Source of the DNA: Patescibacteria group bacterium
Lineage (GTDB): Bacteria > Patescibacteriota > Gracilibacteria > UBA1369 > PNNO01
Length of the DNA stretch: 58,895 bases
Direction of reading: 5' to 3'
Assembly (NCBI GenBank): GCA_042568575.1
Contig: JBHPIO010000008.1
Coordinates: 1-58,895, forward strand
Part shown: piece after piece, positions 35,132 through 44,333 of the stretch
Position numbering within the stretch: position 1 is the first letter of the stretch
Layout: the number at the start of each line of letters is the position of its first letter
Program-made: the position numbers and the translations under genes
Notes under the pieces: generated by a model
What the model saw: only the letters and a program-made list of their open reading frames with translations
What the model was told of the DNA's origin: nothing
The model's database searches: none

Positions 35132-36478
35132 ATGAAACGAAATCTTACCGAAGGATCGATTGTTAAAGCACTACTTGCTCTGGCACTTCCGATCATACTC
35201 GCAAACATTTTCCACACTGTTTATCAGTTAACTGATACTTTTTGGGTTGGAAGACTTGGCGCAGAGGCAGTGGCTGCAGTTAGCTTGAGTTTCCCTATTA
35301 TTTTTTTATTGATTTCACTTGGGGCGGGTTTAGCTATTGCTGGATCTATCCTTGTTGCTCAATACAAAGGAAAAGTCAATCAAGGAAAGATTGATTATGT
35401 TACTGCACAAACTCTCGCCTTGATGACTTTTATCTCATTGATTCTAGCTGTTTTTGGTTATGCAATTTCTTCACTCTTTATTGAGTCTATGAATCAAGAA
35501 CCAATGGTTGCTAGAGACGCAATTTTGTACATGAGGATTTCTTTTATTGGTGTGCCGTTTATGTTTCTATTTTTTGTATTCCAGGCAGTTATGAGGGGAA
35601 TTGGAGATGTCAAAATCCCGCTTTATATAGTTATCACTACCGTTTTATTGAATTTCATTTTGGATCCTCTATTCATATTAGGATGGGGGCCAATTCCTGC
35701 ATATGGAGTTTTGGGTGCTGCCGTATCAACGGTGAGCACTGAAGCGCTATCAGCAATCATCGGGATAACACTTCTTCTCCGTGGGAATAGAGGAATTCAT
35801 TTACGATTAAAAAACTTGAAACCAGATTTTTCTCTTATAAAAAAGATGTTCAAACTTGGGTTCCCTGCTTCTATTGAACAAAGCACAAGATCATTTAGTA
35901 TGGTTGTTATGACATTCCTTGTAGCAACTTTTGGGACTTCTATTGTCGCCTCTTACGGACTGGCAACACGAATCTGGAGTTTCATCATAATTCCCGCTAT
36001 TGGGCTTGCAATGGCCACATCTACATTGGTGGGGCAGAACATGGGCGCGGGAAAAATTGAACGAGCAAATCAAACAATGAAACAAAGTGTGAAAATTGGA
36101 TTTTTCGCATTAACAATAGTTGGAATTTTATTCTTCATTTTTGCTGAACCAATTTCAGCTGCTTTTGTTCCAGGAGAGGAAGCAGTTATCGCCGAAAGCA
36201 CGTTATTTTTAAGAATACTGTCGTTAACATTTGGATTTGTGGGCATGCAAATGGGAATAATTGGAACTTTGAGAGGATCGGGCAATACGAAAACCGCAAT
36301 GAATCTTTCGATTTTCGTCCTGGTTGTAATGCTTTCTATCGCATACATACTTTCAAAACACACATCGCTTGAACATCTTGGGATATGGATTGCTTATCCA
36401 ATATCCAATGTTGCTGGTGCACTTGCAGGACTCTATTTTATTGTGAGAGGCAAGTGGAAAGAAAAGGAAATTACATAA
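35132..36478 (+). CDS. MATE-family efflux transporter
   Basis: LTEGSI..LALP, DTFWVGRLG, RGIGD, NFILDPLFI, VGQNMGAG; about 12 TM. Confidence 0.95.
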   Translation: MKRNLTEGSIVKALLALALPIILANIFHTVYQLTDTFWVGRLGAEAVAAVSLSFPIIFLLISLGAGLAIAGSILVAQYKGKVNQGKIDYVTAQTLALMTFISLILAVFGYAISSLFIESMNQEPMVARDAILYMRISFIGVPFMFLFFVFQAVMRGIGDVKIPLYIVITTVLLNFILDPLFILGWGPIPAYGVLGAAVSTVSTEALSAIIGITLLLRGNRGIHLRLKNLKPDFSLIKKMFKLGFPASIEQSTRSFSMVVMTFLVATFGTSIVASYGLATRIWSFIIIPAIGLAMATSTLVGQNMGAGKIERANQTMKQSVKIGFFALTIVGILFFIFAEPISAAFVPGEEAVIAESTLFLRILSLTFGFVGMQMGIIGTLRGSGNTKTAMNLSIFVLVVMLSIAYILSKHTSLEHLGIWIAYPISNVAGALAGLYFIVRGKWKEKEIT

Positions 36479-36488
36479 CAGTTTTTAC

Positions 36489-36517
36489 TTGACTTTTTTA
36501 AGCTTCGATGTCATAAT
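36489..36517 (+). promoter_or_regulatory. Sigma70-type promoter with extended -10 driving the structured cassette
   Basis: TTGACT-17-CATAAT with TG at 36509-36510. Confidence 0.7.
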
Positions 36518-36539
36518 TCTATCCTTTTTATAAGGATTA

Positions 36540-36552
36540 TGTTCTTTGATAA
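36540..36552 (+). promoter_or_regulatory. boxA-like antitermination element
   Basis: TGTTCTTTGATAA resembles the rrn boxA (TGCTCTTTAACA / GTTCTTTGAAAA) and lies just after the predicted start site. Confidence 0.45.
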
Positions 36553-36718
36553 ATATGATTCATTTCTAATAACCATCAGCTTGGCTTTGCCAATGCTAGA
36601 GGTTTGAAATAGCAATCATATAATAATATCCTGCCAGCTAAGGCATTCCTGTTAGTCACCTGTTTATGAAAGTCTCATAGTCGGATTACTAACAGGAAAC
36701 CAACAAAGGAGGCAACTC

Positions 36719-36916
36719 ATGTTCTGGCTCATAGTAACTGGCCTCGCAGTGGCAGCCATCGCTGCCAACGTACTTCTCATCGTCCGGATGATCAAGTACC
36801 GCGAAGTGAAAATGACGTGGCTCAAGTACGTGTACGTGGCGTCGTTCTCGTACGCAATCAGCATCGTGCTGCAAAGAGGGGCAGCGTTCTGGAACTACAT
36901 AACGTCCCTTTTCTAG
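36719..36916 (+). CDS. 65-aa hydrophobic (1-2 TM) peptide with perfect SD and atypical codon usage
   Basis: AAGGAGG at 36706-36712, 6 nt before ATG; 49 of 65 sense codons end in G/C. Confidence 0.75.
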   Translation: MFWLIVTGLAVAAIAANVLLIVRMIKYREVKMTWLKYVYVASFSYAISIVLQRGAAFWNYITSLF

Positions 36917-36997
36917 GGGCAGGATATTAACCCGTCGAGGCAACTCGACACTACCGGCGGCGGCGAGGATTCACATTCTCGTCGTCGCCAAAGATTT

Positions 36998-37429
36998 TTA
37001 TTCAGAATAACAGTCTTCAGTCATATCAGCAGGGAAGTTGTATGGCTCTATTTCGACGCATGTGTATGCACCATGGCCATCAACCACAATCACCCATTTT
37101 CCTTCCACTTTTGCTACTAAAAATATTCCACCATCACCAATCGCTTCACCTAACACAACTGCGCCACGCATGTGATTTTCACTTTCATGAGTTGGTGAAA
37201 CAGTTATTGATTCAACATCTTTATCGTATTTTTCTGCAAATGCAGCTTGGACTTCTAAAACACTTATGGATATTAGATCAGTTTCAACTTCAGGAGTATC
37301 AACAACCTGTTCTTGAACAGCTTCAACTGGTTCTGCATAGCTTTCGCCAGTTTCTTCCATACATCCGGTCATAGCAAAAAGCGAAACTAAAATAATAACA
37401 CCTGAAAGGAGTGACAATTTAGCTTTCAT
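36998..37429 (-). CDS. Lipoprotein of unknown function
   Basis: Signal peptide with lipobox-like AMTGC; C-terminal Cys pair. Confidence 0.75.
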   Translation of the reverse strand: MKAKLSLLSGVIILVSLFAMTGCMEETGESYAEPVEAVQEQVVDTPEVETDLISISVLEVQAAFAEKYDKDVESITVSPTHESENHMRGAVVLGEAIGDGGIFLVAKVEGKWVIVVDGHGAYTCVEIEPYNFPADMTEDCYSE

Positions 37430-41824: not shown

Positions 41825-41899
41825 TGGTGCCGCGGGGCGGAATTGAACCACCGACACGAGGATTTTCAATCCTCTGCTCTACCACTGAGCTACCGCGGC
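41825..41899 (-). tRNA. tRNA-Phe (GAA), CCA encoded
   Basis: GCCGCGG acceptor stem, GCTC/GAGC D arm, GAGGA-TTGAAAA-TCCTC anticodon arm, GGTGG-TTCAATT-CCGCC T arm, ACCA end. Confidence 0.98.
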
Positions 41900-43385: not shown

Positions 43386-44333
43386 ATGTATATCAATTTT
43401 ATCATTCTGATGTTGATCTCGATCGCTCCGATTGTCATTCTACTTTGGTATTTTGATCATCTAGATAAAGAGCATAAGGAGTCCAGAAGATTTTTGTGGT
43501 CAATATTTTTGTGGGGGGTTTTGATTACTCTTATTGCCGGAGCTATCGAACTTGTTCTTGAACTGTTGTTTTCAGATTTGTTCTTTATTCCGATGGTTCA
43601 AGTTTTCTTTACGGCATTTATATTTGTTGCTGTAACTGAAGAAACTCTTAAATACTGGGTTGTTAAAAGGAAAGCATACGATCATCCCGCCTTTAACGAA
43701 CATTTTGACGGGATTGTTTATGGAGTAGTTGCAAGTCTTGGCTTTGCGGCTCTGGAAAACATTCTATATGTAATGGAAGGAGGGATTTATATTGGAATTA
43801 TCAGGGCTCTTCTTGCTGTTCCAGCGCATGCTCTTTTTGGAGCAATCATGGGTTACTATATCGGGCTTGCTAAGTTTGCTAAGCATCCCGGCGAAGAAAA
43901 GTTACTACTTAGAAAAGGTCTTATTCTTGCGATTATCTTCCATGGACTATATGACTTTTTACTATTCACCCTTTCGCCTATTGCGATCTTTGTTATTCCG
44001 CTACTTCTTGGACTAGCTCTTAATGTGCGTCGAAAAATTATACATCTTCATTTCTTGGATAAGATCAAAAATGCGATTATGCTTCCTAAGTGGACTTGGT
44101 GGAATTACGTTAAAACAGGCATTGGGATGGTCTTTTTTACGACGGGAGTATTAATGACATTTACCATCCTCCTTTACTTAACGGACGATCCAATTGGTCA
44201 GGAAATTTTTACGGGAGTTGAATTTGATATGTGGAGTTCATGTATAACTATTGGCATAATGTGGTTAATCGCGTATGGTCTTATTCGTGACAAAAGACTT
44301 AAGAAAGCTAAAATTAAATCTAAAAAAGCATGA
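43386..44333 (+). CDS. prsW: PrsW-family intramembrane glutamic protease
   Basis: TEETLK, DGIVYG, GFAALEN, PAHA, HGLYD; two extra C-terminal TM. Confidence 0.9.
   Translation: MYINFIILMLISIAPIVILLWYFDHLDKEHKESRRFLWSIFLWGVLITLIAGAIELVLELLFSDLFFIPMVQVFFTAFIFVAVTEETLKYWVVKRKAYDHPAFNEHFDGIVYGVVASLGFAALENILYVMEGGIYIGIIRALLAVPAHALFGAIMGYYIGLAKFAKHPGEEKLLLRKGLILAIIFHGLYDFLLFTLSPIAIFVIPLLLGLALNVRRKIIHLHFLDKIKNAIMLPKWTWWNYVKTGIGMVFFTTGVLMTFTILLYLTDDPIGQEIFTGVEFDMWSSCITIGIMWLIAYGLIRDKRLKKAKIKSKKA

Follow-up and report, generated by a model that had tools for sequence, protein, structure and literature searches.

A 519-nt cassette with a Shine-Dalgarno-led, GC-rich gene for a small membrane peptide, probably acquired horizontally by a Shine-Dalgarno-poor Patescibacteria genome

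The window analysed in this study is a contig of 58,895 nt (JBHPIO010000008.1, here C30) of a Patescibacteria group bacterium (assembly GCA_042568575.1), and the subject is a cassette of 519 nt (36479-36997) that carries a single small open reading frame (ORF). The assembly contains 1.2 Mb in 31 contigs, each named by C and a number, has 37-40% GC and is 82% complete. The cassette and all of its features lie on the plus strand, between the stop codon of a MatE gene (36476-36478) and the stop codon of a convergent gene for a 143-aa protein (36998-37000). The ORF, taken from the ORF list, comprises 65 codons and TAG (36719-36916; ATG at 36719, stop at 36914-36916) and is predicted to encode a small membrane peptide. 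The Shine-Dalgarno (SD) sequence AAGGAGG, read directly at 36706-36712, precedes it with a 6-nt spacer to the ATG. The third bases of the codons are C in 27 cases, G in 22, A in 12 and T in 4, so that 49 of the 65 codons end in G or C, and the GC contents of the first, second and third codon positions (GC1, GC2 and GC3) are 0.46, 0.37 and 0.75. Phe is always TTC (4/4), Tyr always TAC (5/5) and Asn always AAC (2/2). The SD sequence, its spacing and these codon counts had been reported correctly in the first-pass annotation, and the peptide was identical to it letter by letter.

The same site was compared in G001, a genome of the same genus, where the orthologues of both flanking genes are on one contig (88% amino acid identity for the MatE protein and 70% for the convergent 143-aa protein). 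The stop codons of these two genes in G001 (2845-2847 and 2852-2854 of locus L033) are 4 nt apart ('aatt'), versus 519 nt (36479-36997) in the window. Therefore, the promoter, leader, ORF and terminator of the cassette constitute one indel. None of the 11 other loci of the family with a MatE gene showed a comparable GC-rich cassette in the 1.5 kb downstream. Gain in this lineage would be more parsimonious than loss in G001.

The codon usage of the ORF was scored as a log-likelihood ratio between two codon tables, one for native genes and one for the other GC-rich genes of this genome. The ORF scored +29.8 nats in favour of the GC-rich class. Windows of 65 codons from native genes had a mean of -35.5 (standard deviation 10, maximum +5.1, n = 3854), and windows from the class had a mean of +35 (standard deviation 13, n = 116), so the ORF falls inside the class range. 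When all six frames were scored with the codon table of the class against a base-composition null, only the frame of the ORF was positive, at +8.3 nats. Because of this frame-specific coding score and a strong three-base periodicity, the sequence is considered to be of protein-coding origin.

The SD sequence and the high GC3 are both exceptional in this genome. Among 978 non-overlapping ORFs of at least 100 aa, chosen by length, the mean GC1/GC2/GC3 was 0.50/0.34/0.31 and the median GC3 was 0.30. The SD criterion was GGAGG or AGGAG at positions -16 to -5 of the first ATG, applied to an unbiased split of these ORFs by GC3. It was found at 5 of 932 ORFs with GC3 below 0.45, 2 of 24 with GC3 of 0.45-0.60 and 6 of 22 with GC3 of at least 0.60 (Fisher p = 3e-8). 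When any start in the first 40 codons was allowed, the counts by rising GC3 were 21/932, 5/24 and 13/22 (p = 5e-15). One further AAGGAGG, before window position 43792, was considered as a cassette and rejected, since the ORF behind it is out of frame inside a native gene.

The housekeeping genes showed the opposite pattern. The ORFs of EF-Tu, S10 and the ribosomal-protein cluster that follows (C12:106388-126234) have a GC3 of 0.19-0.38, and neither GGAGG nor AGGAG occurs in the 25-mers upstream of them, which are A/T-rich. S10 was located with Pfam and was the only one of the cluster names tested in this way; EF-Tu, L15, SecY, Adk, Map and S5 are what we take these genes to be from their N-terminal sequences, judged by eye. 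The gap between S5 and L15 is 20 nt and holds no gene, so uL30 seems to be absent; absence of uL30 is associated with the candidate phyla radiation (CPR), and together with the small genome of 1.2 Mb it suggests that the bacterium may be a CPR member. Native genes have promoters 25-35 nt before the ATG and A/T-rich, unstructured leaders. The other starts inspected in the window had been described beforehand as lacking SD sequences, which agrees with these data, and the ribosomal-protein genes, where a shared SD use and codon bias would have spoken against a foreign signal, have neither.

The ribosome of this bacterium nevertheless keeps the partner of the SD sequence. The 16S rRNA gene (C1:202067-203530, minus strand) ends with GATCACCTCCTTTCT (CCTCCTTTCT), i.e. 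CCTCC, and the inspection of this end that had been proposed earlier therefore found the CCUCC anti-SD in place. Although SD sequences are scarce in the genome, the ribosome has not become SD-blind, as the canonical anti-SD is retained. Among the 24 tRNAs found in the incomplete assembly, Phe-GAA, Asn-GTT, Leu-GAG, Ile-GAT, Ala-GGC, Thr-GGT, Lys-CTT and Gln-CTG read favoured codons of the ORF by Watson-Crick pairing; Tyr is not among the 24. The codons TTC, AAC, CTC, ATC, GCC and AAG are decoded by tRNAs of the bacterium's own genome. Bacteria generally carry a single G34 tRNA for each of Phe, Tyr and Asn, and the C-ending codons are its cognates. No foreign ribosome is needed to translate the ORF, because the own 16S rRNA keeps CCUCC and the own tRNAs read the C-ending codons.

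The ORF is not the only one of its kind. Of the 978 long ORFs, 37 have a GC3 above 0.5, and they occur in GC-rich islands about the size of a gene, with native sequence on either side. A class of 22 such genes, mostly SD-led and scattered over the genome, was curated; because an SD-led scan supplied part of the list and some starts, the unbiased split was used for the SD statistics given above. The Pfam families in the class are enoyl-CoA hydratase, 3-hydroxyacyl-CoA dehydrogenase, thiolase, zinc alcohol dehydrogenase, OPT transporter, GT87 and DUF4215, and 11 of the 20 class proteins scanned have no Pfam family; the content is accessory, not housekeeping. By eye, many class proteins start with lipoprotein-like or signal-peptide-like N-termini, and many class genes share a kit of TTGACA/TATAAT promoter, long leader, SD sequence and hairpin terminator. 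An automated classification of 105 GC-rich islands was too noisy to be used and chose an antisense ORF at the cassette studied here.

The class carries marks of Myxococcota. TIGR02232 (myxo_disulf_rpt) was found with NCBIfam in 3 of 10 class proteins scanned, and the MYXO-CTERM signal TIGR03382 was found in one protein, at the end of the 833-aa product of C26:83100-85604 (22 bits against a cut-off of 15.85). Islands with a GC3 of 0.70-0.80 and Myxococcota hallmarks are located at C26:83100-85604, C2:36570-39020, C12:17378-19462 and C31:24403-29211; they encode MYXO-CTERM, myxo_disulf_rpt, a beta-oxidation operon with thiolase and a GT87 glycosyltransferase. The thiolase of C31 was compared with species-representative genomes, in which 26 loci are 55-62% identical to it and the remaining 24 loci are 34-42% identical. 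By name, these 26 loci are 14 myxobacterial (Polyangiaceae, Polyangiales, Polyangia, Myxococcales, Kofleriaceae and Haliangium), 7 Deltaproteobacteria, 1 Proteobacteria, 3 unnamed and 1 metagenome-assembled genome (MAG) of Candidatus Magasanikbacteria. Within the order of the bacterium studied here, this thiolase was found in this genome only; one other genome has a relative of it at 38% identity, which gives 2 of 205 genomes. On the strength of these sequence marks, a Myxococcota-like donor is well supported for the class. They also hint that a myxobacterium may be the partner or gene donor of this bacterium.

The MAG of Candidatus Magasanikbacteria (0.7 Mb, outside the 205 genomes of the order) deserves a separate remark. 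Its thiolase is 58% identical and lies in a stretch of 52-65% GC, while the ends of the 7-kb locus have 36-47% GC.

Presence and absence between relatives was also seen for other class genes. At the positions of two C12 islands, G001 has empty sites (94 versus 2385 nt and 38 versus 849 nt). On C31, the first 11.3 kb of a 13.5-kb stretch, which includes both GC-rich islands, have no match in G001, G002 or G005, and comparison of the stretch with G006 gave only three short matches of at most about 90 nt, outside the islands. Other class genes are older: a nucleotide match to the cassette at C2:29115 (65-68%) occurs in G001, and one to the gene at C12:5980 (65%) in G006. A multi-copy region of G006 matches class repeat proteins.

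Several observations concern the leaders and repeats of this class. Of the cassette at C12:21092, the promoter and leader (C12:20940-21090) are present in G001 with a different hairpin sequence, but the 249-aa GC-rich ORF is not, 38 nt standing in place of 849 nt. Since the leader is kept while the ORF is absent, cargo and leader are separable. A second small cassette, at C5:21129-21620, consists of a promoter, an 85-nt leader, GAAAGGAGG, an ORF for a 93-aa lipoprotein with a GC3 of 0.73, and a terminator. The leaders at C2:28985-29116 and C5:21126-21250 share a stretch of 38 nt with 92% identity, namely a hairpin GGCAGCCC...GGGCTGC followed by TAATTGAAA. Directly 3' of this stretch are SD-led ORFs of high GC3 for lipoproteins of 185 and 93 aa, and the stretch may be a shared cis-regulatory leader element. 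G001 also contains short multi-copy elements: 49 nt on its contigs C97, C85, C34 and C10 match C2:43611-43659 with 90% identity, and elements of 47 nt at the ends of its contigs C92, C87 and C3 match C2:42669-42715 with 85% identity. The short elements in G001 may be repeats that break its assembly.

The cassette at 36479-36997 contains a complete set of expression signals. Its promoter is of the sigma-70 type (36489-36517), with the -35 element TTGACT at 36489-36494, a 17-nt spacer and an extended -10 element TG-n-CATAAT at 36509-36517, and it scored 10/12 plus TG in a consensus scan. It is of the same type as the promoters before native genes, in agreement with its earlier description as native-looking. 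Transcription would start near 36521-36525. The leader of about 200 nt begins with hairpin 1 (ATCCTT/AAGGAT, 36521-36537), which is present in both the minimum free energy and the centroid fold. A boxA-like motif, TGTTCTTTGATAA, follows 4 nt later (36541-36553) and is regarded as a lead only. The fold of the 5' untranslated region (UTR) adds hairpin 2, which is long and imperfect (36553-36621), and the repeat search and folds agree on hairpin 3, with 24-nt arms that are 79% complementary (36646-36698). The 5' UTR (36521-36718) folds with z = -5.05, and none of 200 shuffled sequences was as stable.

Downstream of the ORF, the 3' arm GGCAGGATATTA of a perfect 12-nt inverted repeat (36918-36929) starts 2 nt after the stop codon; its 5' arm TAATATCCTGCC lies in the leader (36624-36635), so that the repeat brackets the ORF. 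It was found by the repeat search and in the transcript fold, in which its arms have a predicted pairing probability of 0.87-1.0. A hairpin with a GNRA-type loop, GTCGAG-GCAA-CTCGAC (36934-36949), was given by the repeat search and the folds. An intrinsic terminator (36956-36999) was found by the terminator scan and the folds and consists of a 15-pair stem (36956-36989) followed by AAAGATTTTT, a T run that extends into the stop codon of the convergent gene. The 10-mer GAGGCAACTC, spanning the SD core and the spacer (36709-36718), recurs in the GCAA-loop hairpin (36937-36946), and such a repeat is estimated to be within chance for a 700-nt region.

The surroundings gave no sign of a mobile element. 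In the six neighbouring ORFs scanned, no integrase, transposase, phage or lysin gene was found; the six encode tRNA_edit, MatE, EamA and TMEM43 proteins and two proteins without a family. The ends of the indel have no inverted repeat, the 12-nt inverted repeat being internal, and there is no tRNA at the site. A search of the window with Rfam 15 gave nothing at the gathering score except tRNA-Phe at 41825-41899.

The boxA-like motif was followed through the genome. The rRNA leader of this bacterium has CGTTCTTTAACATT after a hairpin, and the motif and hairpin of the cassette are laid out alike. A degenerate boxA motif occurs 466 times in the genome, and 6 of these occurrences follow a TTGAC-type promoter by no more than 90 nt, against about 4 that we would expect by chance; the overall enrichment is weak and not significant. 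Five of these 6 hits precede GC-rich sequence (the rRNA leader, the cassette studied here, C2:41466, C23:109328 and C23:39825), a post hoc pattern that is suggestive. The gene for NusB is present (C3:29299-29688), and a search of the 82%-complete assembly for the RNA-binding domain of Rho gave no match.

The peptide has 65 aa and a net charge of +5. Residues 2-22 are strongly hydrophobic (mean hydropathy 2.2-2.5), residues 23-36 form a basic loop with 5 of the 6 basic residues, and residues 37-51 form a second, moderately hydrophobic stretch. The C-terminus QRGAAFWNYITSLF has one charge and is not the charged tail expected of a holin. The first-pass annotation had described a hydrophobic helix, a basic loop and a second hydrophobic segment, which was borne out, and had likened the peptide to small membrane toxins, holins and lysis proteins; this likeness comes from the two-helix profile, and the peptide passed no family test. 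A candidate in Pfam, the superinfection exclusion protein SieB (PF14163), was rejected, with 19.6 bits against a cut-off of 26 bits, E = 7e-4 and a match to profile positions 1-56 of 147 that covers the hydrophobic N-terminus only. Nothing significant was found in PHROGs (best E = 0.024, function unknown), and PADLOC gave no match. The ESM Atlas returned generic two-helix hairpins only, with scores of at most 0.86, and the model of the peptide itself had a pLDDT of 0.66.

No relative of the peptide was detected. Among 5.8 billion clustered proteins, of near lengths only, the peptide matched itself alone. HMMER against 1.84 billion representatives without a length limit gave itself and three other proteins, which on inspection were translations of tandem repeats and were rejected as homologues. 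Six-frame searches of the 204 other genomes of the order gave 7 matches at chance level (best E = 0.009), five of which have internal stops. There was no match in IMG/VR or in metagenome contigs, none in three myxobacterial MAGs and one Magasanikbacteria MAG, and none in a sample of 401 genomes from the phylum to which a Polyangiaceae MAG belongs. At the DNA level, 36600-37000 was compared with 60 relatives and matched only the query, and the leader region 36479-36720 matched the 205 genomes of the order only over 19-39 nt in unrelated contexts, some of them inside coding regions. The cassette is single-copy in its own genome by BLAST. Its sole notable match there lies in the promoter region of a different cassette (C2:28987-29040; 76% identity, 54 nt).

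Considering these results together, we believe it probable, with reasonable confidence, that the ORF is a horizontally acquired orphan gene for a membrane peptide, contained in a lineage-specific cassette of 519 nt, whose donor used SD sequences and had a high GC content that has not yet ameliorated. Recent horizontal transfer had been offered earlier as the simpler fallback, and it is this proposal that the data favour: the cassette is absent at the G001 site, the peptide has no detected relatives, and its codon usage matches the GC-rich class. The site of the transfer would have been the 4 nt that separate two native genes in convergent orientation. The perfect SD sequence and the high GC content of the third positions would be the signature of the donor, which was most likely of the same Myxococcota-like kind as that of the approximately 22 other genes. 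The cell's own RNA polymerase would transcribe the cassette from the native-type sigma-70 promoter through the structured leader to the intrinsic terminator, and its own ribosomes would translate the ORF by pairing of SD and anti-SD. The SD sequence may persist because the GC-rich, foldable start region cannot use the native route through A/U-rich, unstructured leaders. The peptide would form a helical hairpin in the inner membrane, its basic loop facing the cytoplasm. Our best guess for its function, by analogy with the lipoprotein and secreted sister genes, is a small accessory protein of the membrane or envelope. If acquired in this way, the ORF is in itself nothing unusual among orphan genes gained by horizontal transfer, and its value lies in its class and setting.

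Several points weigh against horizontal acquisition or its details. No donor copy or homologue of the peptide was found in any collection searched. A precise deletion in G001 is conceivable, and an imperfect direct repeat, TTTTTAYT, is present at both junctions of the indel. The first 220 nt of the indel, like its promoter, are AT-rich (about 33% GC by eye), and a transfer in one step from a donor of high GC content does not account for this. In the case of the 65-aa ORF, codon usage is the one feature that would suggest a Myxococcota origin. Expression of the cassette is a prediction from its sequence.

Among the other explanations, the ORF may be a neutral foreign remnant, i.e. a sequence that was coding in the donor and is now perhaps an untranslated passenger, not yet decayed or ameliorated. 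An orphan status and a single copy would be expected of such a remnant. The predicted pairing of the SD core GAGG (36709-36712) with CCUC (36742-36745), with unpaired probabilities of 0.01-0.02 for 36709-36711 and 0.46 for 36712, would fit it as well. However, the cassette retains a complete expression kit: its promoter scores 10/12 plus TG, its perfect SD sequence has the ideal spacing, its ORF is intact and its terminator is strong, and the 65 codons run without a stop and with clean periodicity. We consider a remnant unlikely.

A wider reading is that a CPR-like bacterium repeatedly captures envelope genes of Myxococcota, its probable host (for lipoproteins, surface proteins with MYXO-CTERM or cysteine repeats, and small membrane peptides), as single-gene cassettes with a native promoter, a long, structured and boxA-like leader and a donor SD sequence, and that the 65-aa peptide is host-derived and acts at the contact between epibiont and host. 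We hold this to be speculative and rather unlikely in its full form. A search for the TLC nucleotide transporter gave no match in this genome, but no control genome matched either, which makes the search uninformative. If repeated capture is true, two regimes of translation initiation would run side by side in one cell. An SD sequence combined with high GC3 cleanly flags foreign genes in this SD-poor genome, and the Myxococcota hallmarks of this set lead to a testable prediction of the partner organism of an uncultivated bacterium. The bacterium is also a natural experiment on SD pairing, in which a lineage poor in SD sequences can show whether its ribosomes respond to one that is present. The part of the literature covered by our search held nothing relevant on SD sequences in Patescibacteria or on transfer between CPR and Myxococcota, and we do not claim that the class pattern is unpublished.

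It was also considered that the peptide acts as a small membrane toxin, either resembling those of type I systems or of a phage type similar to holins or SieB, whose mRNA is silenced by a 5'-3' helix and SD sequestration until it is processed or triggered. The peptide is small, hydrophobic and basic, its location is intergenic and strain-specific, and the weak SieB match (E = 7e-4) falls on the N-terminal transmembrane part. The 200-nt leader is strongly structured (z = -5.05), a perfect helix of 12 bp brackets the ORF with a pairing probability of about 1, and the SD core is predicted to be paired with p of about 0.99. However, the bracketing helix is a model without comparative support, since 11% of non-cognate pairs of 5' UTR and 3' UTR give a duplex energy as good as that of the cassette, and pairing of the two UTRs as a trait of the class gave a permutation p of 0.11 (cognate versus non-cognate duplex energies in 19 genes, i.e. 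18 of the curated class and the ORF studied here). The consensus scan of 36300-37200 found no promoter-like site on the minus strand, where a weak or atypical promoter could escape it. The family searches speak against a toxin as well, with SieB at 19.6 bits below the 26-bit cut-off, no PADLOC match and a best PHROG E of 0.024, as do the lack of a charged C-terminus, the absence of lysin and phage genes nearby and the single copy. A toxin is therefore quite unlikely in our view.

A structured non-coding or dual-function RNA, in which the ORF is incidental, is very unlikely. The region 36560-37000 (441 nt, plus strand) folds with z = -8.3, and this value, the stable leader and the hairpin with the GNRA-type loop would fit such an RNA. 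On splitting, however, the signal sits in the leader, and the value for the whole region is probably inflated by the shuffling of GC-rich with AT-rich segments. The ORF alone folds with z = -1.64 and 9 of 200 shuffled sequences were equally stable, so it is not unusually structured. A structural RNA does not account for the three-base periodicity and the frame-specific coding score. A search of 36400-37100 that admitted E values up to 10 gave no Rfam family, with only four matches at E of 3 to 9, and the leader is not conserved in the 204 other genomes of the order. A protein-coding gene, not a structured RNA, is the best reading of the ORF.

The idea preferred in the first-pass annotation, that the message is made here and tuned for the ribosomes and tRNAs of the epibiont's host, is extremely improbable and found no support: the contrast in SD and codon usage and a hint of the host being the lineage that donated the class are all that favour it, whereas the own CCUCC and own tRNAs suffice for translation, the same signals occur on ordinary sister genes for beta-oxidation enzymes, the GT87 glycosyltransferase and lipoproteins and secreted proteins with export signal peptides, donor ancestry is simpler and explains everything, and we know of no mechanism for the export of mRNA between bacteria.

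The cassette resembles several known systems in part. In hok/Sok and AapA1/IsoA1, the type I toxin mRNAs show long-distance pairing of 5' and 3' ends. The cassette is similar to them in its small hydrophobic peptide, its long structured leader, the predicted 5'-3' helix and the predicted occlusion of the SD sequence. It differs in that no antisense promoter and no homologues were found, only one copy is present, and the helix has neither covariation nor class-wide support. The leader can also be compared with the boxB-boxA antitermination leaders of rRNA operons, in which boxA is bound by NusB/NusE. In both, a hairpin is followed 4-5 nt later by GTTCTTTRA, just 3' of a strong promoter; here, the arrangement precedes a tiny protein-coding gene.

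SD-poor lineages that retain the anti-SD in their 16S rRNA exist, for example Bacteroidota. As in these, the native genes of the bacterium studied here, including the ribosomal-protein genes, start after A/T-rich leaders without SD sequences, and its 16S rRNA ends with CCUCC. In contrast to Bacteroidota, a minority class of foreign genes bears strong SD sequences. A further comparison is with horizontally acquired ORFans and atypical islands, and Lawrence and Ochman are said to have described the amelioration of such compositionally atypical genes after transfer. The atypical GC3 and codons, the presence or absence between relatives and the intergenic site are all shared with them. The unit is very small in comparison, a single gene of 65 codons with its own promoter, long leader and terminator. 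It also differs in that there is no integrase, transposase or tRNA at the site and that the half with the promoter and leader is AT-rich like the recipient. Finally, the recipient is almost free of SD sequences, so that in this genome the SD sequence itself marks foreign origin.

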